From NCBI GenBank assembly GCA_041498975.1, contig JBGQJI010000076.1, positions 1-11,845 on the forward strand: a stretch of 11,845 nucleotides of DNA, given 5' to 3'. This stretch comes from Candidatus Methylomirabilis sp. GTDB taxonomy: Bacteria; Methylomirabilota; Methylomirabilia; Methylomirabilales; Methylomirabilaceae. The notes below the pieces were generated by a model that searched no databases, was not told where the DNA came from, and was given only the letters and a program-made list of their open reading frames with translations. Numbering within the stretch: position 1 is the stretch's first letter; each line of letters starts with the position of its first letter. The translations under genes and the position numbers were made by a program. Shown piece by piece: positions 395-11,550 of the stretch.

Positions 395-1504
395 TCAGTT
401 CAGTGCGAGAGGGTGATACAAGGCATCGCGCTCAACCGGTTGCCGACCCGCCTCGCGAATCATCGCAATCAGTTGCTCATGGCGCAGCTCCTGGTGGTGG
501 GAGGTATCGCCCAGCGCATGCGTGATCTCGTAATGCGTGACCGTCCCGTCGATATCGTCCGCGCCATACCAGAGGGCGAGCTGCGCCACCGCCGGCGTGA
601 TCATGATCCAGAACGCCTTGACGTGGGGGAAGTTGTCCAGCAACAGCCTGGCGATGGCGATCTCGCGGAGGTTGGCGTATCCCGTGGTGATCGGGATGTG
701 ACTCAGCTCGGTGTTGGCCGGATCGAACGCCAGCGGGATGAAGCACATGAAGCCGCCCGTCTCGTCCTGCAGGTCACGAATATGGAGCAGGTGTTTCACC
801 TTCTCCTCGATGGTTTCGATGTGGCCGTACAGCATCGTGGCGTTGGAACGGAGGCCCGCCCGGTGCACTGCCCTGGCCACGTCGAACCACCCCTGGTTAT
901 CCAGCTTTGCCCGGAACAGCTCTTCATGCACGCGGTCGCTGAAGACCTCCGCCCCCCCGCCAGGACAGCAGTCGAGTCCGGCCGCTTTCAGGTCTCCCAA
1001 GACTTCGTCCATCGGCTTTTTCGCGGCTCGCTGGATCTGGGCCAGCTCGATCATCGTAAAGGCCTTCACGTGGACGTCCGGACGCACGTCCTTCACCGCC
1101 TTGACCAAGTCGAGATAGTACTGATACGGCAGCTTCGGGTTGATCCCGGCCACCATGTGGACCTCGCGAATCGGAACATCGCTTCTCTTGCGAATCCGGT
1201 CCTGAACCTCCTCGATGCTCAGTGCATACGCCCGCGCATCGCCGGGCAGCGCGTAGAAGGAACAGAACTTGCAACCTTTGTTGCAGATGTTCGTGTAATT
1301 GATGTGGAGGTTGCGGACGAAATAGGTCAGGTTTCCGCTCTTGTGCTCGCGGACCAGATTGGCGAGGTATCCCACCGAAGTGAGGTCTCGCGTCCGGTAG
1401 AGGGCCAGGCCGTCCTCGACCGCCAGACGCGTCCCTTCCAGCACCTTCCGATAGACCCGCTCCAGGCCGGAGGCGGCCAGCCTGGATTCCATGAGGCGAC
1501 TCAT
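395..1504 (-). CDS. mqnE: Aminofutalosine synthase MqnE (CofH/MqnE radical SAM family, futalosine menaquinone pathway)
   Basis: Radical SAM motif CNKGCKFC after NLHINYTNI, plus PGGGAEVF, NATMLYGHIE, LRDLQDETGGF-like and FIPLAF motifs. MqnE-type KAFWIM and GADDIDGTV..YEITH rather than the MqnC-type QASW. ATGA overlap with the upstream gene. Confidence 0.88.
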   Translation of the reverse strand: MSRLMESRLAASGLERVYRKVLEGTRLAVEDGLALYRTRDLTSVGYLANLVREHKSGNLTYFVRNLHINYTNICNKGCKFCSFYALPGDARAYALSIEEVQDRIRKRSDVPIREVHMVAGINPKLPYQYYLDLVKAVKDVRPDVHVKAFTMIELAQIQRAAKKPMDEVLGDLKAAGLDCCPGGGAEVFSDRVHEELFRAKLDNQGWFDVARAVHRAGLRSNATMLYGHIETIEEKVKHLLHIRDLQDETGGFMCFIPLAFDPANTELSHIPITTGYANLREIAIARLLLDNFPHVKAFWIMITPAVAQLALWYGADDIDGTVTHYEITHALGDTSHHQELRHEQLIAMIREAGRQPVERDALYHPLALN

Positions 1505-1821
1505 CCCCCCTGCCCCTTTCGGGAGCGTGCACCCTTGCCGGCAGACCCCTCGCTCAGCCGGTCGATCTGTTCGAGCAGGGCAACCGCCCTCAGTTCGTAA
1601 CTGTGGCGAGTCTGCTGATAGTCGTCAAGGGACAGCTTGCCGGCCTGATGATCGAATTCGACCTCCTTGATCGCCGCGTACAAGGTCTGCTTCTCGGCCA
1701 GGAGTTCCTGCAGCTCAGCGTTCTCCGACTCCGGCGGTGGGCCCTCCGAGGTCCTGAAGAAAGGCATCACCACCGGCGAGACGGCGAGAAAGACCAGGAG
1801 CGCGCCGACCAGGTACTCCAT
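1501..1821 (-). CDS. Small membrane-anchored CcmI N-terminal-like protein (106 aa, no TPR domain)
   Basis: Start re-called at ATG 1821, 4 nt after the ccmH stop. One N-terminal TM helix (YLVGALLVFLAVSPVVMPFF), then LYAAIKEVEFDHQAGKLSLDDYQQTRHSYE, matching the E-x-E-x-D-x3-G-x-L/I-x3-D/E-Y pattern of the CcmI/CycH cytoplasmic loop. Confidence 0.7.
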   Translation of the reverse strand: MEYLVGALLVFLAVSPVVMPFFRTSEGPPPESENAELQELLAEKQTLYAAIKEVEFDHQAGKLSLDDYQQTRHSYELRAVALLEQIDRLSEGSAGKGARSRKGQGG

Positions 1822-1825
1822 ACCG

Positions 1826-2302
1826 CTAGCGCCCCCACTCCTTGAGTTCCGCTTCGAGCCGGCCAGCGTACCGCGGATCAAGGGGGGGCAGTTCCCCCTT
1901 CTGCCGGGCTCTGCCCCTGGCCGCCCCGCGGCGAACCACCCAGCCGATGGCGCCGGCCCCGGCCAGGATGGCGCAGAACGGCAGCAGCCAGGCAACCCAG
2001 TTGAATCCCTGGCGCTTTGGAGCGAGGAGGATCCACTCGCCGTAGCGGCTCACGAAGTAGGCCCGGACCTGATCGGGACTCTCCCCATTCTTCAACTTCT
2101 CCCGAATCATGTCGCGCATCTGGTTGGCCATCTCCGATGGCGAGTCGCCCACCGACAGGTTCTGGCAGACCGGGCAGCGCAGCTCTGCGGCCAGCAGATG
2201 AGTCTGCTCCTCGACGCTTCCCGCAAGCAGGCCAGTCGGCCACACCCCGAGGACTGCCATCATCACCAGGGAGAAGACTGTTCTACGCATGCGTACCCCC
2301 AT
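1826..2302 (-). CDS. ccmH: Cytochrome c-type biogenesis protein CcmH
   Basis: Signal peptide, ELRCPVCQNLSVGDS (LRCxxC), YFVSRYGEWILLAP and a C-terminal TM helix. Alternative start ATG 2290. Confidence 0.93.
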   Translation of the reverse strand: MGVRMRRTVFSLVMMAVLGVWPTGLLAGSVEEQTHLLAAELRCPVCQNLSVGDSPSEMANQMRDMIREKLKNGESPDQVRAYFVSRYGEWILLAPKRQGFNWVAWLLPFCAILAGAGAIGWVVRRGAARGRARQKGELPPLDPRYAGRLEAELKEWGR

Positions 2303-2309
2303 TGCTCGG

Positions 2310-2373
2310 GAGTTCCGGGTGCCAGGTTCCGAAGCTTCCTAACTTGGAACTTGGCACATGGAACCTGGAACTT
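2310..2373. repeat. Inverted array of heptamer tandem repeats (RRGTTCC x3 / GGAACYT x4) forming a hairpin
   Basis: Left units gagttcc, gggtgcc, aggttcc (2310-2330); right units ggaactt, ggcacat, ggaacct, ggaactt (2346-2373). Fills the ccmG-ccmH gap. Confidence 0.85.
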
Positions 2374-2377
2374 CAAA

Positions 2378-2896
2378 TCAGAACATCTCCTCAATCTTCG
2401 ACCGCAACACCTGCTTGGTCAGGGCCCCGACATGCTTGTAGTGGATCGTGCCGTCTTTTCCGATGAAGAAGGTCTCAGGCACACCGTAGACCCCATAGTC
2501 GATCGAGAGCTTGCCCTGGAGATCGGGTCCGTTCGGAAAGGTCAGCTTGAACCGCTCAAGAAATGCCTTGGCGTCGGCTTCGCGATCCTGGATGTCCACC
2601 CCGATCACCATGACCCCCCGATCCCGGTAGGCTTGCCAGGCCGCCTCAAGGGCCGGCGCCTCTTCGTAGCAGGCCGGGAAACACCACGAGGCCCAGAAGT
2701 TCAGGACCACCGGTCTGCCGCGAAGCTGCTCAAGGCTGGTGCTCTCCCCGTCAAAGGGGCGCAGAGAGAACGGCGGGGCCGGCCGGCTCACCAACGGCGA
2801 TGGGACCTGGCGCGGGTCGGTCTTGAATCCGTAGGCCAAGAGCAAGAGCACCGGAAGGATGGCGGCGGGAACGATCAGCTTCTTCCAGGTTGCCAT
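2378..2896 (-). CDS. ccmG: Periplasmic thiol-disulfide oxidoreductase CcmG/DsbE (TlpA-like), 172 aa, with an atypical CX3C site
   Basis: Start re-called at ATG 2896 (SD AAGGAG upstream). N-terminal anchor, PSPLVSRPAPPFSL, VVLNFWASWCFPACYEE and the cis-Pro motif YGVYGVPETFFI. Lies between ccmF and ccmH. Confidence 0.88.
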   Translation of the reverse strand: MATWKKLIVPAAILPVLLLLAYGFKTDPRQVPSPLVSRPAPPFSLRPFDGESTSLEQLRGRPVVLNFWASWCFPACYEEAPALEAAWQAYRDRGVMVIGVDIQDREADAKAFLERFKLTFPNGPDLQGKLSIDYGVYGVPETFFIGKDGTIHYKHVGALTKQVLRSKIEEMF

Positions 2897-4875
2897 GCCA
2901 CCCGCTCCTTCACGGGCTCGGCAGCCAGCACCCGTCGCCGATCGGGCCAGATCGCCACGAGCGCCCCCAGGGCCATCACTGCGCCGCCGATCCAGATCCA
3001 CATCACCAGGGGGCGGATCAGCATCTTCAGCGTGGCTGAACTCCCGTCCTGAGCAAACGACGAGAGGATCAGGTAGAGATCTTCCCGGGGGGTCGAGCGG
3101 ACATCGACGCTGCCGATCGGTTGCTGCTCCGATCGATAGAACCGTTTGGAGGGCCGCATCTCTGCCACCTTGCGAGCCGCGTTGAACACCGTGAAGGTCC
3201 CCTGCACGACGAAGCGATGCGGCTCCTGCCACGCGGCCAGTTCATCGAATCGTACCTGGTACCGACCCAGGTGCAGCGACTCGCCCCGCTGCAGCGTCAC
3301 CTCCTTCTCCTGCCTGAAGACCGTCGAGGCGGTGATCCCGAGCACGACGAGGACCACACCAAGATGGACGATGAGGCCGCCGTGCCGCCTCCGGCTGCGA
3401 CGGGTCAGGTTCGACAACGCCGTGAGGTACCCCTCCCCGGTGAGCCGTCGCCGCGTCCGCGCGCCGCGCACAAACTCCTGGATGACTGTCGCGGCGGCAA
3501 AGACGGCCAGGGCGAAGGCGAGGAGCGGGTAGAGTCCCCGCACCCCAACAAACGAGGACACGCCGGTGCCCAGGAACGCCAGGAACAGGGGAATGGTGAA
3601 GGTGCGGCGCAGGCTCTCCAGCGAAGCACGCCGCCAGGCGATGAGCGGCCCGACCCCCATCAGGAAGATCAAGACCAATCCGATCGGGACGTTGACGGTG
3701 TTGAAGAACGGCTCGCCCACGCTCACCTTGACCCCGCGCACCGCCTCGGACAGCAGGGGAAAGAGCGTCCCAAGGAAGACCGCGAAGGCGAACCCCAGGA
3801 GCAGCAGATTGTTCATGAGAAAGGCGCTCTCCCGGGAAACCAGGGAGTCGAGGTCCCCCTCCGCCTTCAGGCCGTCGCTCCGGTACACCAGGAGGCTGAA
3901 AGAGACGAGGAGGATCAGGGCGATGAAGGCCAGGAAGAGCGGGCCGATGGTCGAATCCGAGAAGGCGTGAACGGACGAGAGGATGCCGCTTCGCGTGAGG
4001 AACGTGCCGAAGATGGTGAGCGAGAAGGTTGTGATGATCAGGGCCAGGTTCCAGACCTTCAACATCTTCCGCCGCTCCTGGACCATCACCGTGTGCAGGA
4101 AGGCGGTGCCGGTCAGCCAGGGCAGGAACGAGGCGTTCTCCACCGGGTCCCACGCCCAGTAGCCGCCCCATCCCAGGACGGCGTAGGACCACCAGCCGCC
4201 GAGGATGATCCCCATCGTCAGAAAGCCCCAGGCCACGATCGACCAGCGACGGACCGTCCTGATCCATTCCTCCCCGAGGTGCCCTCTGATCAGGGCGGCC
4301 ATCGCGAACGCGTAGGGGACCGACCACCCAACATAGCCGGTATAGAGGCACGGCGGGTGGACCCCCATCAGCGGGTGATTCTGCAGGAGAGGGTTGGGGC
4401 CCCGCCCGTCGGCCGGCGGCGGAAAGAGCGGCGTGAACGGATTGGCCGGAAACGCCGCCAGAAACAGGAAGAATGCCTGGATGCATAACAGCACGGCGGT
4501 CACGTAGGGGATCGCCTCGCGGCTGCGCCTCCCCTCGATCACCACGGCGAGAAGGCTCATGAGGGCGAGGATCCATATCCAGAGGAGGATCGACCCCTCG
4601 AGGGCGCTCCACAAGGCGATGATGGTGTAGAAGAGAGGCGTCCCAAGGCTGCCGTTCCTGGCCACAAACTGGACGCTGAAGTCACGGCCGACAAGCGCCG
4701 CCTCCATCAACAAGACGGCGAAGGTGGCCAACCCGAACACCGCGTAGACCGCACCCCGCCCGCTGTCCACGAGCGACGGCCTGCGCCGCCTCGCCCCCAT
4801 GACCGAGACGATCACCCCATAGAGAGCGATCCCAAGCGCCAACGCCAGACTGAAACGGCCAAGCGTCGAGATCAT
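2875..4875 (-). CDS. ccmF: Cytochrome c heme lyase (synthetase) subunit CcmF
   Basis: WWD motif WGGYWAWDPVENASFLPW, W-x3-EGS, NPLLQNHPLMGVHPP, conserved His in FLHT and SVHAF, TFLTRSG and HLGV. ATGA overlap with ccmE. Confidence 0.97.
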   Translation of the reverse strand: MISTLGRFSLALALGIALYGVIVSVMGARRRRPSLVDSGRGAVYAVFGLATFAVLLMEAALVGRDFSVQFVARNGSLGTPLFYTIIALWSALEGSILLWIWILALMSLLAVVIEGRRSREAIPYVTAVLLCIQAFFLFLAAFPANPFTPLFPPPADGRGPNPLLQNHPLMGVHPPCLYTGYVGWSVPYAFAMAALIRGHLGEEWIRTVRRWSIVAWGFLTMGIILGGWWSYAVLGWGGYWAWDPVENASFLPWLTGTAFLHTVMVQERRKMLKVWNLALIITTFSLTIFGTFLTRSGILSSVHAFSDSTIGPLFLAFIALILLVSFSLLVYRSDGLKAEGDLDSLVSRESAFLMNNLLLLGFAFAVFLGTLFPLLSEAVRGVKVSVGEPFFNTVNVPIGLVLIFLMGVGPLIAWRRASLESLRRTFTIPLFLAFLGTGVSSFVGVRGLYPLLAFALAVFAAATVIQEFVRGARTRRRLTGEGYLTALSNLTRRSRRRHGGLIVHLGVVLVVLGITASTVFRQEKEVTLQRGESLHLGRYQVRFDELAAWQEPHRFVVQGTFTVFNAARKVAEMRPSKRFYRSEQQPIGSVDVRSTPREDLYLILSSFAQDGSSATLKMLIRPLVMWIWIGGAVMALGALVAIWPDRRRVLAAEPVKERVAWQPGRS

Positions 4876-5327
4876 CGTCCCTCCTCCCGCGGCTTCATGA
4901 GCGTCCGGTACAGATCCTTCGCCTGAGCCTGCCCGGGATGGGGGGGGCGGTACTCTTCGGAATGCTTGGCGAGGATCGTGCTTGCCCTGAACAGGCTGCC
5001 ATTCGCGTACCTCCCCTCGACGATCGCGCCGGCGCCCTCCTTAAACAGGTCGGGGGGAGAGCCCGTGTGCTCGACCGCCACCTGCTCCTTCCCGTCGCTG
5101 AGCAGGAAGGTGAGTTGGAGGGTACGCGGCTCCCAGCGAAGCGAACCAGGGACAACCATCCCGCCGAGGCGGAATGACTTGTCGGCCGCCGACGCGCCCT
5201 TTGCCCTCAGTTCGGTCGGCGTGATGTAGTAGACGGCGGCCTCTCGGATGCCCCCGTAAATCAGATAGCCCAGCGCGGCCGCGACCACGATGCCCCCAAG
5301 CAGCAGCTTCGTCTTCTTCTTCATCAT
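4872..5327 (-). CDS. ccmE: Heme chaperone CcmE
   Basis: N-terminal TM helix, YYITPTEL, RLGGMVVPGS, PPDLFKEG and the canonical heme-binding LAKHSEEY (HxxxY). Confidence 0.96.
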   Translation of the reverse strand: MMKKKTKLLLGGIVVAAALGYLIYGGIREAAVYYITPTELRAKGASAADKSFRLGGMVVPGSLRWEPRTLQLTFLLSDGKEQVAVEHTGSPPDLFKEGAGAIVEGRYANGSLFRASTILAKHSEEYRPPHPGQAQAKDLYRTLMKPREEGR

Positions 5328-5470
5328 GCCGCCTCCTTCGAGTACCGCTTGAGGAGAGCCGCGACCTTCGCGGTCATCGCCTTCGTCCGCCTGTTCACCG
5401 ACACGAGATAGCAGAGCATGGCCGCAGCAGCCAAGAGATACGCCGCGAGAACATAGGGCCAGGGGTTCAC
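5324..5470 (-). CDS. ccmD: Heme exporter protein CcmD (48 aa)
   Basis: GTG at 5470 overlaps the ccmC TGA (GTGA), with GGAG 8 nt upstream. MNPWPYVLAAYLLAAAAMLCYLVSVNRRTK has the YV-x-AAY motif, one TM helix and a basic tail. Its stop overlaps the ccmE ATG. This is the 3' part of track ORF 5324..5659. Confidence 0.85.
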   Translation of the reverse strand: MNPWPYVLAAYLLAAAAMLCYLVSVNRRTKAMTAKVAALLKRYSKEAA

Positions 5471-6150
5471 CCGAGATTCTCCATTCTCAGGCGATTCAAC
5501 TCCCATCTGGCCTCCTCCAGCCGAAGCCGCTTGGCCAGGAAATACCCGTACAGGAACAGCCAGGCGGCGAGGTTGGTGTAGAGCGCCACCTGCATCTCCG
5601 GCGCCACCGTCGAGGGACCGGGCCTGAGGATCGACGGCGGCTGATGCAGGGTGCGCCACCAGACGACCGACATGTGGATGATCGGGATATCCAGGAAGCC
5701 GATGATCGCGAGGACCGCGCTGAAGACCGCCCCGCGGGAGTGGTCATCCACCAGCGCCCGGAGCATCAGATACCCGATGAAGATCAGGAGGAGGATGGTC
5801 GTGGTGGTCAGCCGGGCATCCCACGTCCACCAGGTCCCCCAGGTGGGCCGCCCCCAGATCGAGCCGGCCGCGATCGCCAAGGCGGTGAACAGCACGCCGA
5901 TCTCGGCTGAAGAGTGCGCAATCGCGTCGGCCCGGTCCCGACGACGCCACAGATACAGGATGCTCGCCACGAACACGATGAAAAAGGCAAGGTAGCTGAC
6001 CAGGATCAAGGGAACGTGCAGGTACATGATCCGCTGCACCTCCCCCTGCACCCCGTCGGGCGGGGCGTAGAGGAACCCCGCGTACAGGCCGATCAGCAGG
6101 CCGAGCGCCGCCAGAAGGCCGAGCGCCCGTTCGACACCACGCCCGGTCAT
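5467..6150 (-). CDS. ccmC: Heme exporter/transfer protein CcmC
   Basis: RIMYLHVP, WWD motif WGRPTWGTWWTWDARLT and WWRTLHQP. SD GAGGAG upstream. Confidence 0.97.
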   Translation of the reverse strand: MTGRGVERALGLLAALGLLIGLYAGFLYAPPDGVQGEVQRIMYLHVPLILVSYLAFFIVFVASILYLWRRRDRADAIAHSSAEIGVLFTALAIAAGSIWGRPTWGTWWTWDARLTTTTILLLIFIGYLMLRALVDDHSRGAVFSAVLAIIGFLDIPIIHMSVVWWRTLHQPPSILRPGPSTVAPEMQVALYTNLAAWLFLYGYFLAKRLRLEEARWELNRLRMENLG

Positions 6151-6154
6151 CTCT

Positions 6155-6832
6155 TCACTCCTCGACCAGATACTCGAACGTCATCAACGACACCACGAGA
6201 ACCACGATATCGAACGCCGCCATCAGCTTCAGCCATGGCACGGCAAGTTCGAACGGCTCGCCGTGCAGGACGACCTCCGTCCCCCTGACCGCAGCGAGGA
6301 GCAGGGGAATCGTCACCGGGAAGAGGAGAAACGGCAGCATCGCCTCACGCGCCCGAAGCCCGGCCGTCATGGTGGACAAGAGAGTCCCCGCTGCGGCCAA
6401 TCCGAGCGTGCCCGGCACGGCGATCACCATCAGCTTGGGGAGTTGCGCCCAGAGATCCATATTGTACAGGACGGCAAAGATGGGCAGGATCACCAACTCG
6501 ACCACCAGGATCGAGCTGAAATTGCCGACTAGCTTCCCCAGATAGATCGCTTCTCGCTGGGCCGGATACAGCAGCAAGCCATCCAAACAGTCGTTCTCCA
6601 GCTCACCCTGGACCGATCGCGACAGGCCGAGCACGCTGGTGAACGTGAAGGCCAACCAGAGCAAGCCGGAGGACGCTCCACGAATCAGGGCCTGATCGGC
6701 TCCAAGGGCGAAGCTGAAGAGGAAGAGGACCAGGAAGGCAAAATAGAACATCGCCGTGACGCTTTCCCGGTCCCGCCATTCGGCAAGCAAGTCTTTCCGT
6801 GCGATCGCCCAGACGCGCCGCGAAAAGCTCAT
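6155..6832 (-). CDS. ccmB: Heme exporter permease CcmB
   Basis: IARKDLLAEWR, GLLW, LDGLLLYP, YLGK and LPFLLFPVTIPLL, with multiple TM helices. ATGA overlap with ccmA and SD GGAGG. Confidence 0.95.
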   Translation of the reverse strand: MSFSRRVWAIARKDLLAEWRDRESVTAMFYFAFLVLFLFSFALGADQALIRGASSGLLWLAFTFTSVLGLSRSVQGELENDCLDGLLLYPAQREAIYLGKLVGNFSSILVVELVILPIFAVLYNMDLWAQLPKLMVIAVPGTLGLAAAGTLLSTMTAGLRAREAMLPFLLFPVTIPLLLAAVRGTEVVLHGEPFELAVPWLKLMAAFDIVVLVVSLMTFEYLVEE

Positions 6833-7575
6833 CCTCCTTCCTCCCGCTCGCCATGCAGTGCGAACAGGGCGCGAAACGCGTCGAGGCTCGTCTCCTCCCG
6901 ACGACCATCGAAGACCAGGCGGCCCTGTCGCAGGATGGCCACCCGGTCGGCCACGCCGTATCCCATCGTCAGATTATGGGTGGCCAGAATTGTGCAGGCG
7001 CCCGCGGCCTTCGACGCCATCAGGAATTCCTCGAGCACCTTCGTGGCCTGCAGGTCCAGACTGGCAAACGGCTCATCCAGCAGGATCACCTTCGGTTCGC
7101 GCAACATCAGCTTCGCCAGCGCAAGGCGCCGCTTCATCCCGCTCGAGAAGGTCCTGACCCCTGAATCGGCCGCCGACTCCAGGCCGACGCGGGACAAGGC
7201 CTGCGCCACCCGCTCGCTCGGGCGGTCCAGTCCCAGCATGGCCGCCGCATACGCAAGGTTCTCCCTCGCCGTCAGCGCCTCGTAGAGCTGGTGCCCGTGC
7301 GCCAGGACTCCCAGGGCGCGCCGGACCTCGTTGCCATCCCGGTCGAGCATGTGGCCGGCGACCTGGACCGTCCCGCCGGTCGGCCGCACGCGGCCGGCCA
7401 GAATCCGGAGCAAGGTGGTCTTGCCGGCCCCGTTTGAGCCGAAGAGCGCCAGGATCTCCTCAGGCGCGACGGCCAAGTCGATCCCTCGCAGGGCCGGCTG
7501 GCCGCCATACCATTTGACAAGCCGCCGGACCTCGATCGCGGGCAAAACTGGGGCGCCACCCCTTCCGGCGCTCAC
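6829..7575 (-). CDS. ccmA: Heme ABC exporter ATP-binding protein CcmA
   Basis: Walker A GSNGAGKTT, signature FSSGMKRR, Walker B ILLDEP and H-loop ATH. Start re-called at GTG 7575 (GTGA overlap with the upstream stop, GAGG upstream). 7578 is an alternative. Confidence 0.92.
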   Translation of the reverse strand: MSAGRGGAPVLPAIEVRRLVKWYGGQPALRGIDLAVAPEEILALFGSNGAGKTTLLRILAGRVRPTGGTVQVAGHMLDRDGNEVRRALGVLAHGHQLYEALTARENLAYAAAMLGLDRPSERVAQALSRVGLESAADSGVRTFSSGMKRRLALAKLMLREPKVILLDEPFASLDLQATKVLEEFLMASKAAGACTILATHNLTMGYGVADRVAILRQGRLVFDGRREETSLDAFRALFALHGEREEGG

Positions 7576-8075
7576 CACCCGTGCCTCAGGGCGACGCCCA
7601 GGGCGGCCGCCACGCCGCCGAGGGCTGCAGATGTCCATGCGTACCCTTGGAGCCGGCCCGTCGACCTGAGCAGCGCCGCCATCCGGTCAGGAGGTACTCT
7701 CGCAGGCGCCCCTGACTCCTCGGCCATGGATCTCGTGAGAGGCAGACCCAGCCGGAAAAACTGATAGCTACTCAACAAGGCTAGGATGAAGACTACCAAA
7801 AGCTTCGACCCCAGGGCGGCGAAAAGCTGGCTGAAATAACGGCTCCCGAGCGCCGCTTTCAGGTCGGTCAGCATGGCGGCGCCCGTAACGATCAGGATGC
7901 CAAGGGATGCCAACAGGACCGGGTGCACAATCTTGACCACCTGGCCGATCGTCTGAAGGGTCCTTCCGGCCTCGCCAAGCCGGCGTGCCGACGGAACCAG
8001 GAGACCTGCAATAAACACCATGCCCCCCAGAAAGATGAGTGCCGAGACGACATGCAGATACGCCAGACCGGGCAT
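7572..8075 (-). CDS. CopD/DUF4149-like four-TM membrane protein of unknown function
   Basis: YLHVVSALIFLGGMVF...VP, ILIVTG and KLLVV fit the LH-x5-W/F-x-GG...TG...K pattern of CopD-like proteins. Start taken as ATG 8075; the track start GTG 8144 adds an unconvincing 23 aa. Confidence 0.7.
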   Translation of the reverse strand: MPGLAYLHVVSALIFLGGMVFIAGLLVPSARRLGEAGRTLQTIGQVVKIVHPVLLASLGILIVTGAAMLTDLKAALGSRYFSQLFAALGSKLLVVFILALLSSYQFFRLGLPLTRSMAEESGAPARVPPDRMAALLRSTGRLQGYAWTSAALGGVAAALGVALRHGW

Positions 8076-8219: not shown

Positions 8220-9248
8220 TCAGGAGGGAGATGGCCTGTTTGCCAGCCAGCTTGGTCTGCCTTCCTCCAGTCCTACCAGTGGGTCGCCGGACTGCAGCAA
8301 GCTGATAAAGCGTTCTATCAATTCGGGATCGCGCCAACCCTTCTCAACTTCCTCCTTCATGATCGAGAACACCTGATCGGTCTTCAGTGACGGCTTATAA
8401 GGCCTTGCCGTGATGAGCGCGTCGTAGATATCCACGATCTGGATGATCCTGGCGGTCAGGGGGATCTCCTCTGCTTTCAAGCCATCGGGATACCCGCTGC
8501 CGTCCCATCGCTCATGATGATAGCGAATGACGGGTAGCACCAGCTTCAGCGATTTGAGCGGCTTGCAGATCCGTTCCCCGATCACCGGGTGTTCCCGCAT
8601 GATCTCCCACTCTTCCTCGGTCAATCCCGTCTTCTTGTTGAGGATCGATTCCGGAATGGCGATCTTGCCGACGTCGTGCAGGTAGCCGCCACGGTGCAGC
8701 GCCTTCAGGTGCTCCTTGCCAAGGCCCAGGCTCCGGCCCAGCGCGACCGAGTACAGGCACAGTCGCTCACAGTGGCCATCGGTGTAGGCATCCTTTGCCT
8801 CGACACTCAGGGCCAGCGTGCACAGGACATCCTCCGCATGCTCCAGTTCATCCGTGAACTGCTTGAGCTTCAGGAGGGACCGTACCCTGGCGCTCAACTC
8901 CGCGTGGTGGAAGGGCTTGCTCAGAAAGTCATCCGCCCCGGCCTCGATGCCACGTATCCTGTCTTCCACATCGCTCAGAGAGGTCAGCATGATGACAGGA
9001 ACGAGCCGGGTCCGCTCGTCCCCCTTGAGCTTGGAACAGACTTCGTAGCCGTCCATGCCCGGCATCATCACATCGAGGAGGATAAGGTCGGGGGGGCCGG
9101 CCGCCACCAGCTCGAGGGCGCGCTCGGCATCCAAGGCGGGTATGACCTGGTATCCCTGAGGGGCCAGGATGGCCTCCACCAACGTGATGTTGGCCTCCTG
9201 GTCATCGACAACTAAGATCTTCTGGCGAGGTGGAAGTTCTGGTTCCAT
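8220..9248 (-). CDS. Response regulator with receiver + HD-GYP phosphodiesterase domain (RpfG-like c-di-GMP phosphodiesterase)
   Basis: Receiver motifs ILVVDD, PDLILLDVMMPGMDG, MLTS and SKPF. HD-GYP motifs GHCERL, LHDVGKI, HHERWDGSGYPDGL, VDIYDAL and RPYK. SD AAGGAG upstream. Confidence 0.95.
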   Translation of the reverse strand: MEPELPPRQKILVVDDQEANITLVEAILAPQGYQVIPALDAERALELVAAGPPDLILLDVMMPGMDGYEVCSKLKGDERTRLVPVIMLTSLSDVEDRIRGIEAGADDFLSKPFHHAELSARVRSLLKLKQFTDELEHAEDVLCTLALSVEAKDAYTDGHCERLCLYSVALGRSLGLGKEHLKALHRGGYLHDVGKIAIPESILNKKTGLTEEEWEIMREHPVIGERICKPLKSLKLVLPVIRYHHERWDGSGYPDGLKAEEIPLTARIIQIVDIYDALITARPYKPSLKTDQVFSIMKEEVEKGWRDPELIERFISLLQSGDPLVGLEEGRPSWLANRPSPS

Positions 9249-9332: not shown

Positions 9333-9361
9333 AAAATAGAGAACCTCCCCGGGTATGTCAA
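9333..9361 (-). promoter_or_regulatory. sigma70-type promoter for the HD-GYP response regulator
   Basis: Minus strand TTGACA (9361-9356), 17-nt spacer, TATTTT (9338-9333), with an AT-rich UP-like tract (AAATATTTGTA) just upstream. Confidence 0.7.
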
Positions 9362-9437: not shown

Positions 9438-10193
9438 TCAGGAGAAGGGTGCCACGGCGATGGTTTCCCGATCCGGAGGATCCAGGGGCAGACCCTCACG
9501 GCGCTCTTCGGTCGAGCTGAGCAGCAGATACCGTAAGGTGGAAACGAGATCGACCCCGAACTCCGCCTCGAACCGTTCGATCAGGCCGGGGATCACCTCG
9601 TTAACCGAAACCGGACGAGCCAGCTCCTTCGCCATACTTGTTGGCGTGGCATCCGGGATGCCGCATGGGACGATCAGTCCGAAGGGTGCCAAATCCATGT
9701 CCACGTTCAGCGCGAAACCATGGCGAGTCACCCAACGAGTGAGATGGATCCCGATCGACGCGATCTTTCGCCCGGCCACCCAGACCCCTGTCCGGCCGAT
9801 CCAGCGGTCAGCAACGATCTCAAAGGTCGAAAGAGTTTCGATCAAGACCCCTTCGAGTCGCCGGAGGTATCGGTGCAGGTCGCGGCCATGCTCGACCAGA
9901 TCCAGGATCGGGTACCCTACCAACTGGCCCGGACCGTGATACGTGATGTCGCCACCCCGATCCACCTCAAAAAAACCAATCCCCAACGCGCCCAGGAAGG
10001 ATTCGGGCACCAGTAGGTGACGTTTCTTTCCGGCGCGTCCCAACGTCATCACAGGGGGATGCTGGAGCAGCAACAGGACATCCCCGATCCGCCCTTCGGC
10101 CCGAAGTGCCGCAAGGCGGCGCTGGAGTGTCAAGGCCTCCTCGTAGGGCGTGAGACCCAAGTCGATCAGGCTGCATCTAGGCCGGCTAGGCAT
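9438..10193 (-). CDS. lipB: Octanoyltransferase LipB
   Basis: DLGLTPYEEALTLQ, QHPPVMTLGR, RGGDITYHGPGQLVGYP, KIASIG, HGFALN and IVPCG. Start taken as ATG 10193 because the in-frame upstream 35 codons look like pdhA/lpdA debris. 10259 and 10298 are alternatives. Confidence 0.93.
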   Translation of the reverse strand: MPSRPRCSLIDLGLTPYEEALTLQRRLAALRAEGRIGDVLLLLQHPPVMTLGRAGKKRHLLVPESFLGALGIGFFEVDRGGDITYHGPGQLVGYPILDLVEHGRDLHRYLRRLEGVLIETLSTFEIVADRWIGRTGVWVAGRKIASIGIHLTRWVTRHGFALNVDMDLAPFGLIVPCGIPDATPTSMAKELARPVSVNEVIPGLIERFEAEFGVDLVSTLRYLLLSSTEERREGLPLDPPDRETIAVAPFS

Positions 10194-10205
10194 CAGTCTT
10201 CGGCG

Positions 10206-10352
10206 ATGGGTCGGCCGACCGACGTCGGCCAGCGCGGCCACGCCCTCCGCCTCATTCATCTCCGCGCCCTTTTCTTCAACTGTGTGAATCAGGAGCATCT
10301 ACTCGAGAAGAGCGGTCAGCGCCTTCTGTTCCATTCCCAGCGGCATCCTCAT
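10206..10352 (-). pseudogene. Fused remnants of pyruvate/2-oxoacid dehydrogenase E1-alpha 5' end and dihydrolipoamide dehydrogenase 3' end (deletion scar)
   Basis: From ATG 10352 (SD AAAAGGGG) one frame reads MRMPLGMEQKALTALLE*MLLIHTVEEKGAEM | NEAEGVAALADVGRPTH. The first part matches PdhA 'L..L.RQMLLIRRFEEKAAEM' with TAG (10299-10301) at the Gln position. The second part matches the LpdA tail '(HPTL)SEAVGEAALAALGRPIH'. Confidence 0.7.
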
Positions 10353-11271
10353 TGTTTCCCCTTTTCCGGAGGACCTCGACGGCCTGCCCCCGAGCATGGT
10401 ACGAACTGCGAACGAGAGGGCCTGCTTCCACATGCTTGAACCCCATCCCCTCCCCGATCAGCTTCAACTCTCCGAACTCTTCCGGGGCATAGTACTTCAT
10501 GATCGGCAGGTGTTGCTGGCTTGGCCGAAGGTATTGCCCCAACGTCAGGATGTCGCAATCAACTCCCCTCAGGTCCACCATCGTCTGAAGCAGCTCTTGC
10601 CGCTCCTCGCCCAACCCCAGCATGATCCCCGATTTGGTCACCAAATCCGGGGCCATCCGACGCGCCCTGTCGAAGAGCTCAAGTGACCGCTCATATCGCG
10701 ATCCGGGCCGGGCGTCCCGGTACAAGCGGGGAACGGTTTCCATATTGTGGTCCAGGATGTCCGGGGCGGCCTCAACCACCGTGCGAAGGGCCGCCTCGTC
10801 GCCCTGGAAGTCGGGGATCAGCACCTCGACGCTGCAGCCTGGCGAAAGCGCACGCACCCGGCGGATCACTGTGGCGAAGATGGATGCGCCACCATCGGCC
10901 TGGTCATCGCGGTTGACGGAGGTAATCACCGCATGCTCCAGCCGAAGCAGCCCGATCGCCTGGGCCACCCGCTCCGGCTCAGCCAGATCGAGTTCCGTCG
11001 GTTTGCCGTGGGTGACGGCACAAAAACCGCAATTTCGCGTACAGATGTCCCCCAAAATCAGGAAGGTTGCGGTGCGCTGCTCCCAGCACTCGCCGATGTT
11101 GGGACAGTGAGCCTCTTCGCAGATGGTGTGGAGCTTTTGATCATGGAGGAGTCGCTTCAACCTTAGGTAATTGGGGCCGCCCGGGGCTTTGACCTTCAGC
11201 CACTGCGGCTTGCGGGCGCTGAGAATCTCGGCAGGAGAGGTAAAGCCACTTGCACAAGCGTGTTCTACCAT
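10276..11271 (-). CDS. lipA: Lipoyl synthase LipA
   Basis: RKPQWLK, auxiliary cluster motif CEEAHCPNIGEC, radical SAM motif CTRNCGFC, ITSVNRDD, TLGQYLRPS and GPLVRSSYHA. SD AAGGGAG upstream. Confidence 0.97.
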   Translation of the reverse strand: MVEHACASGFTSPAEILSARKPQWLKVKAPGGPNYLRLKRLLHDQKLHTICEEAHCPNIGECWEQRTATFLILGDICTRNCGFCAVTHGKPTELDLAEPERVAQAIGLLRLEHAVITSVNRDDQADGGASIFATVIRRVRALSPGCSVEVLIPDFQGDEAALRTVVEAAPDILDHNMETVPRLYRDARPGSRYERSLELFDRARRMAPDLVTKSGIMLGLGEERQELLQTMVDLRGVDCDILTLGQYLRPSQQHLPIMKYYAPEEFGELKLIGEGMGFKHVEAGPLVRSSYHARGQAVEVLRKRGNNEDAAGNGTEGADRSSRVDAPDSHS

Positions 11272-11385
11272 CGCTCCCTTATTCCACTTGGCGGAGTGTA
11301 TGACTCTCGCGATGACAGCTGGAAACGGTTTCTACTACAGACGCCGCAAGAAAAGTGTCATTGCTTCGAAAGTCCCCCTCACGCG

Positions 11386-11550
11386 TGTCATTGCGAGGCT
11401 GACGCAGTCGGCCGAAGCAATCTCAACAGGGTTCCAGGTTCCAAGTGGCGAGTTGCAACTTCCGAGTGCCGGGTTCCGAGTCGAGGATCAACCAAGCGCG
11501 GCTCTTAACCTGGGACCTGGAACAGCGAAGCCTGGTCGCTCGCAACGACA
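11386..11550. repeat. MITE/REP-like palindromic element of the GTCATTGCGAG...GAAGCAATC...CTCGCAATGAC type, interrupted by a heptamer array
   Basis: Left end TGTCATTGCGAG (11386-11397), internal hairpin GGCTGAC-gca-GTCGGCC, then GAAGCAATCTC. Right end CTCGCAACGACA (11539-11550) is 11/12 complementary to the left end. Extra half-sites at 11306-11317 (CTCGCGATGACA) and 11356-11368 (TGTCATTGCTTCG). Confidence 0.7.
11429..11525. repeat. Second inverted heptamer array, same family as 2310-2373
   Basis: Seven units gggttcc, aggttcc, aagtggc, gagttgc, aacttcc, gagtgcc, gggttcc (11429-11477), then the reverse-oriented units ttaacct, gggacct, ggaacag (11505-11525). Confidence 0.8.

Follow-up and report, generated by a model that had tools for sequence, protein, structure and literature searches.

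A scar of about 150 bases between lipA and lipB of Candidatus Methylomirabilis sp. fuses the beginning of pdhA with the end of lpdA and occupies the place of the four-gene pyruvate dehydrogenase (PDH) operon of sister genomes, an identification we regard as nearly certain. We interpret it as the scar of a deletion of pdhA-pdhB-pdhC-lpdA, which probably followed the gain of an unrelated PDH of the AceE-AceF-LpdA type. The window analyzed here is the whole of contig C76 (11,845 nt) of genome G000, a fragmented metagenome assembly of 2.68 Mb in 241 contigs that is 84.9% complete. The minus strand carries lipA (10276-11271), then lipB (to 9438), next a gene for an HD-domain response regulator, and cytochrome c maturation genes. 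The features of the locus are as follows.

10276..11271, minus strand: lipA, lipoyl synthase, 331 aa (TIGR00510, 369 bits against a cut-off of 310)
10357..10365, minus strand: Shine-Dalgarno (SD)-like site of the former pdhA (duplex of -8.0 kcal/mol with the presumed anti-SD)
10257..10352, minus strand: pdhA 5' stub, of which 10334-10257 aligns ungapped to PdhA
10299..10352, minus strand: dead ORF of 17 codons where pdhA used to start, closed by a new TAG at a position that is Gln in most relatives
10296..10298, minus strand: internal pdhA Met taken as the LipB start by gene callers, with no SD (energy 0)
10256..10254, minus strand: junction codon AAT, fitting neither pdhA nor lpdA better, with about 4.6-4.8 kb missing
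10200..10253, minus strand: lpdA 3' stub, its old stop now CGA (9-11 of 18 amino acids matching in 12 relatives)
10167..10243, minus strand: cluster of five strain differences; the four that alter the fused frame sit at codon position 2
9438..10193, minus strand: lipB, octanoyltransferase, with ATG 10193 as the likely ancestral start (TIGR00214, 170 bits against a cut-off of 84)

Both LipA and LipB exceed their NCBIfam equivalog cut-offs. LipA of close relatives stops at 309-312 aa, compared with 331 aa in G000, and the last 20 or so codons of the longer protein overlie the pdhA stub in another frame. This tail is identical in all three cluster members.

The frame that opens at 10352 reads exactly as an earlier, sequence-only reading of this DNA had given it, and a strong SD (-8.0 kcal/mol) precedes 10352/10346. 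All SD energies are duplex energies with an anti-SD sequence that we presume to apply here; a search found no assembled 16S 3' end. Over codons 10334-10257, an ungapped alignment with the PdhA proteins of 12 sister genomes has 13-15 of 26 amino acids in common, and the N-terminal helix motif of sister PdhA (LE.KELVDLLRQMLLMRRFEEKCAEM) is present; the first six codons (MRMPLG) show no clear alignment to PdhA. When BLOSUM profiles made solely from the relatives' genes were run over the six-frame windows of G000 itself, the PdhA stub ranked first of 5,316,130 windows with a score of 56.5, the next being 36.8. A full-length PdhA frame (about 320 aa, with the thiamine-binding region) is absent from the locus: a stop follows after 17 codons, and the homology ends at codon 32. 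Mismatches at codon positions 1, 2 and 3 number about 7, 7 and 10 in the stub, compared with 0.5, 0.8 and 5.4 among intact relatives. The alternative that MEQ is an LpdA start like that of G005 and G009 was rejected, because the next 23 codons align to PdhA.

The two stubs adjoin, in frame and in the ancestral order. The LpdA stub ranks second of 5,327,698 six-frame windows with a score of 36.4, one unrelated window scoring 37.0. The C-terminal pattern of sister LpdA (EA..EAAL..LGR.IH. followed by the stop) is matched at 9-11 of 18 positions in 10253-10200, where the old stop has become CGA (10202-10200). The HPTLSE active-site motif is not found in the stub; the junction falls at its Ser, and HPTL has been deleted. 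The dN of the LpdA stub is 0.28-0.36, versus 0.04-0.05 between intact copies, and that of the pdhA stub is 0.20-0.31. Codon-position constraint has been lost in both, and the aligned stubs contain no indel despite a change of about 20-30% at replacement sites. The sequence-only reading had proposed a fusion of the pdhA 5' end to the lpdA 3' end with decay on both sides. The alignment of both stubs to 12 relatives, together with ranks 1 and 2, bears out the fusion, and the lost codon constraint bears out the decay. The extents of the stubs need amending: the fused frame stands as it was given, but the lpdA stub reaches 10200, and AAT at 10256-10254 can be assigned to neither gene.

Between the positions homologous to the two sides of the junction, seven intact genomes carry 4,606-4,814 bases, in agreement with the proposed removal of several kb. 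No repeat, promoter or terminator was found at the junction. A GC-ATG-GG-like stretch occurs in both genes, one codon out of register, and decay hides anything short. The flanking genes of G000 show a dS of 0.62-0.81 to G014/G016 and of 0.97-1.3 to G005/G009; taken with the decay of the stubs, and assuming a clock, these values suggest an age for the deletion about equal to, or less than, that of the split between G000 and G014/G016. An RR comparison with G005 was discarded as a spurious short alignment.

Sister genomes show the order lipA and then pdhA-pdhB-pdhC-lpdA-lipB, as had been predicted from the window. A PdhA ortholog occurs in 13 of the 20 genus genomes. Among the matches listed, pdhA lies directly behind lipA in all 12 pdhA genomes compared (G031 left out), and pdhA, E2, lpdA and lipB are ordered on one contig in 11 of these. 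In other families, five of five genomes read likewise have the block between lipA and lipB, with extra genes inserted in some; in a sixth, G019, pdhA is not directly behind lipA. In G006, PdhA passes TIGR03182 and LpdA passes TIGR01350, PdhB also exceeds its NCBIfam cut-off, and PdhC falls just under TIGR01349 (420 versus a cut-off of 445). No PdhA ortholog was found elsewhere in the 84.9% complete G000 assembly, where the best match is a 37% paralog on contig C106 that occurs in 19 of the 20 genus genomes and lies below both PDH cut-offs.

A second cluster of E1 alpha, E1 beta and E2 genes lies at C106:3473-6958 of G000 (L021, L024; L217-L219); it occurs in 19 of the 20 genus genomes and scores under both PDH cut-offs. 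No E3 adjacent to it was found in the four genomes read, and its neighbors are genes that we take to be proteasome-ATPase-like. Long E1 proteins (frames of 915-985 aa) and extra E2 genes, presumably SucA/SucB-like, occur in only three of the 20 genus genomes (G014 C70 and C99, L214 and L213; G010 C10; G011 C53).

Contigs from two of four sequencing runs, X2 (9700-10527) and X3 (10015-10558), span the junction without gaps. X7 has 28 letters on one side of the junction, and X5 does not cover it; the runs may come from one campaign and hence may not be fully independent. The JGI protein P0002 holds the identical fused frame with the four amino-acid differences of X2/X3. Misassembly is therefore unlikely. 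A 21-base junction pattern searched in metagenome contigs gave four matches, all in unrelated DNA. Between G000 and X2, all five differences in 828 bases lie within 77 bases (P = 0.0003 if uniform), and four fall in 82 unconstrained stub bases, compared with one in about 170 synonymous sites (Fisher P = 0.04). The bias toward codon position 2 rests on four sites. The derived changes are present in both alleles of 10167-10243, and the cluster could stem from relaxed constraint or from a recombined tract.

Several other elements were observed in the window. CCTAG occurs twice, nine bases apart, at 10176-10190 just past the LipB ATG; the doubling gives LipB three codons more than most relatives and is likely a small duplication. 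A sigma-70-like promoter (10/12) at 9333-9361 precedes the response regulator/HD gene (8220-9248). The region 395-7638 holds cytochrome c maturation genes (ABC ATPase, CcmB, CcmC-type, CcmE, CcmF, thioredoxin-like and CcmH) together with a radical SAM gene whose C-terminus is of the CofH/MqnC kind; the gene order matches that of relatives. The stretch at about 11385-11550, the lpdA-lipB spacers of G007 and G008, and L074:12095-12245 resemble a dispersed palindromic repeat, a candidate family; the one in L074 has matches on dozens of G000 contigs.

In the RpoB tree, the seven pdhA-less genomes group as a single clade with moderate support (91/88). In a concatenated tree of 14 genomes, the five sampled pdhA-less genomes also form one clade (95.8/96), in which G000 is sister to G014+G016 (99/99) and G005+G009 come next (95.8/96). 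An AMO/pmoA match was found in none of the seven versus 10 of the 13 others (10 of the 20 genus genomes). The pdhA-less genomes are mostly 80-88% complete (G005, 82%; G014, 88%; G002, 81%), with G009 at 94%. The locus shows three end states: G000 has the stubs, G014 and G016 have lipA directly joined to lipB, and G005 and G009 have lipA-lpdA-lipB; no lipA or lipB match was found in G002 and G015. The state of G005 and G009 contains a second scar (L026, L028), the decayed last nine codons of pdhC (27 bases) ahead of an intact lpdA. This remnant ends 12 bases before lpdA, and 1-2 in 100,000 background windows score equally high. Since neither the G000 state nor that of G005/G009 can have arisen from the other, at least two deletions are required, and the two states together indicate that the clade ancestor kept at least the start of pdhA, the end of pdhC, and lpdA. 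At the lipA-lipB junction of G016 (L027), no ATG, GTG or TTG precedes the first conserved strand of LipB, and LipA extends a few codons further; this junction may reflect either a LipB with a non-canonical start or early decay.

Pieces of a candidate replacement lie at contig ends of G000. Contig C124 ends in 44 codons that are 95% identical to AceE of G016, and contig C123 ends in 44 codons that are 91% identical to LpdA of G016; aceF and most of aceE and lpdA are missing from the assembly. The gene upstream of the aceE start is the same as in G016, and the genes downstream of lpdA on C123 are the same as in G002 (90.7% over 2.4 kb). The full-length aceE, aceF and lpdA of G016 pass TIGR00759, TIGR01348 and TIGR01350, with other genes between aceF and lpdA, and G002 has a nearly whole AceE-type lpdA ahead of the same genes as on C123. 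An AceE-type lpdA was found in G000, G016 and G002 only. No database protein exactly matches the AceE start of G000, the best agreeing at 42 of 44 positions. G000 also encodes on C141 a NifJ-type PFOR (single-chain pyruvate:ferredoxin oxidoreductase) that passes TIGR02176. DNA matches to G016 and G002 further identify a dihydroorotate-dehydrogenase-like gene, PPDK, and an FAD/Fe-S oxidase on these upstream contigs, C141 and C124, and LUD-domain genes on C123. The lactate-related names of genes in these contigs are our assumption. The pyruvate/lactate gene region is thus common to G000 (C141, C124 and C123; L127, L067, L225 and L023), G016 and G002 (L074, L212, L215 and L216 are further loci of the region).

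The aceE gene exceeds its cut-off in one of the 66 genomes of the order, and single-chain PFOR was seen solely in G000, G016 and G002, which suggests that both were acquired in the sub-clade to which these three genomes belong. None of the 13 pdhA genomes and two of the seven pdhA-less genomes (one whole, one fragment) have aceE. Neither aceE nor NifJ was found in G005 and G009 (82% and 94% complete) or in G014 (88% complete); in G002 (81% complete) no aceE was found, and both AceE-type lpdA and NifJ are present. A search of the Atlas for an aceE donor gave no usable candidate. X1-X4 contigs cover aceE, aceF and lpdA of G016 at 80% likeness; many organisms contribute to them, and none could be tied to G000. 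The lipoyl clients GcvH and a second 2-oxoacid dehydrogenase E2 are present in G000, and the lpdA fragment on C123 is the only E3 found there. Judged from these sequences, G000 probably still has a pyruvate dehydrogenase, of the non-orthologous AceE-AceF-LpdA type. The sequence-only reading had taken the scar to record the loss of a central-metabolism complex; this holds for the lipA-lipB locus, but the genome probably has AceE-AceF-LpdA and does have a NifJ-type PFOR.

We propose that the lineage gained AceE-AceF-LpdA, which would have made the old pdh operon redundant, and that a deletion of 4.6-4.8 kb would then have removed pdhA-pdhB-pdhC-lpdA from between lipA and lipB. The new genes were presumably acquired in the ancestor of G000 and G014/G016/G002, and they presumably lie whole within the assembly gap of G000; the gain would have preceded the loss. 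The old lpdA would have become dispensable because the new lpdA would supply E3, and G005 and G009, where no AceE-type lpdA was found, would have kept the old one. The likely reason for the retention of lipA and lipB is a continuing demand for lipoylation by GcvH, the second 2-oxoacid dehydrogenase E2, and AceF. As for the stubs, their small size, their place within the lipA-lipB transcript, and their partial overlap with the LipA reading frame probably account for their persistence. A single deletion, as the sequence-only reading had it, is favored by the about equal decay of the two stubs over an early loss of pdhABC (P = 0.014 at d = 0.5), though it is not proven.

Two other histories would lead to the same scar. 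The loss could have been independent of aceEF-lpdA, with ferredoxin-dependent oxidoreductases making PDH dispensable clade-wide and aceEF-lpdA arriving later or being broken in G000. G005 and G009 lost pdhABC and no aceE was found in them, which shows that PDH loss is possible without the island; POR_N matches occur in 18 of the 20 genus genomes and a split PFOR-like pair in G008 and G009, on both branches, so redundancy with a genus-wide split PFOR-like enzyme could suffice. We nevertheless consider this history improbable, because G000, G014 and G016 lack lpdA at the locus whereas G005 and G009 retain it, the AceE-type lpdA was found in G000, G016 and G002 only, and GcvH and the second E2 of G000 need an E3, for which the C123 fragment is the only one found. 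A history of two nested deletions, in which pdhABC was lost in the ancestor of the seven genomes, leaving stubs of pdhA and pdhC, and lpdA was lost later in the G000 line, is to our judgment equally improbable; it would alter the history and not the identity of the stubs. The decayed pdhC end before lpdA in G005 and G009, with its 1-2 in 100,000 background windows, would fit it, and one early event would account for the absence of pdhA from all seven genomes. However, decay has gone no further in the pdhA stub than in the lpdA stub (dN of 0.20-0.31 versus 0.28-0.36), and 14 changes in 62 sites are fewer than the decay predicted since the clade root (P = 0.014 at d = 0.5 and 0.002 at d = 0.6, a clock being assumed).

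The scar itself could owe its appearance to assembly collapse or to chance resemblance, given that G000 is a fragmented metagenome assembly (241 contigs) and both stubs are short. This we hold to be hardly credible: contigs of two runs bridge the junction and a second allele exists at JGI, a collapse would leave the ends undecayed, and the two stubs take ranks 1 and 2 of 5.3 million windows while being adjacent and in ancestral order. The fate of the scar is a separate matter. As had been foreseen, gene callers absorb the stub into LipB, which both NCBI (P0001) and JGI (P0002) call as 286 aa, starting at the internal pdhA Met at 10298. LipB made from ATG 10259 or 10298, with a leader derived from the LpdA tail, would mean a co-opted scar. 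In both known alleles the lpdA stop is gone and the frame runs open into lipB, the aligned stubs remain free of indels despite their replacement-site change, and ATG 10259, which lies 17 bases past the LipA stop, carries a moderate SD (-4.6), compared with -0.3 for ATG 10193 and 0 for ATG 10298, which follows the TAG of the well-initiated 17-codon ORF. But a weak SD at 10193 is normal, as native lipB starts score 0 in five of 13 relatives having a start; the stub varies faster between strains, with four amino-acid changes versus none in the LipB core; and in-frame junctions are what readers would spot first. Co-option is thus unlikely, and LipB most likely still starts at 10193, from where six codons lead to the C-S-L-I-D-L-G strand, relatives mostly having 3-4. 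A 20-aa ORF whose TGA overlaps ATG 10193 was rejected as a coupling device, because the X2/X3 allele removes the TGA. The AlphaFold model of the 286-aa LipB (mean pLDDT of 32.5, alignment of two rows) is uninformative.

Gene presence tables cannot tell loss in one clade from gain in the other, and a scar can. Here the scars show that pdhABC-lpdA was present in the genus ancestor and disappeared from the pmoA-less branch, probably on more than one occasion. The locus is also a clean case of annotation hiding a lost operon, since both sources start LipB at a dead pdhA Met, and only contig ends reveal that G000 probably still has PDH. The likely replacement suggests that organisms so far described as methylotrophs use lactate or pyruvate. 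A broader reading, to which we give slightly less than an even chance, is a clade-wide rebuilding of the pyruvate node, in which PDH was deleted at least twice in parallel, one sub-clade swapped in the pyruvate/lactate region (aceEF-lpdA, NifJ-type PFOR, PPDK, a lactate-dehydrogenase-like protein and LUD-domain proteins), and the G000 scar may serve as a LipB leader. If true, this would point to organisms that grow at low oxygen on lactate or pyruvate.

A literature search yielded no report of PDH loss or replacement in the genus, with subscription journals and supplements outside its coverage; the type of event is known, and no publication was found on the present case or its direction. Non-orthologous gene displacement, in which one enzyme type is displaced by another, is well known. 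The present case resembles it, as far as family assignment of the sequences goes, in that a PdhA/PdhB heterotetramer E1 (TIGR03182) and a homodimeric AceE (TIGR00759) would serve one reaction, and the two E1 types never occur together in the 20 genus genomes searched. In contrast to the usual displacement, the displaced operon left a scar that gives the direction, and the complement is incomplete, with aceE in two of the seven pdhA-less genomes. A clade of Ca. Methylomirabilis without PMO is described in the main text of PMC11264602, which mentions pyruvate once, for another taxon, and in which no mention of PDH loss or replacement was seen. The seven pdhA-less genomes, in which no AMO/pmoA match was found, are alike in this respect and appear to be the same clade. 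Gene remnants in bacterial intergenic spacers are known as well, as described for Buchnera in PMC3164680, and the G000 scar is like them in consisting of decaying pieces between kept neighbors after a multi-kb deletion. Unlike Buchnera, a reduced symbiont, the G000 organism comes from sediment metagenomes, and its scar is an in-frame fusion of the two outer ends of a four-gene operon, concealed by two called genes, in the tail of LipA and the head of LipB.
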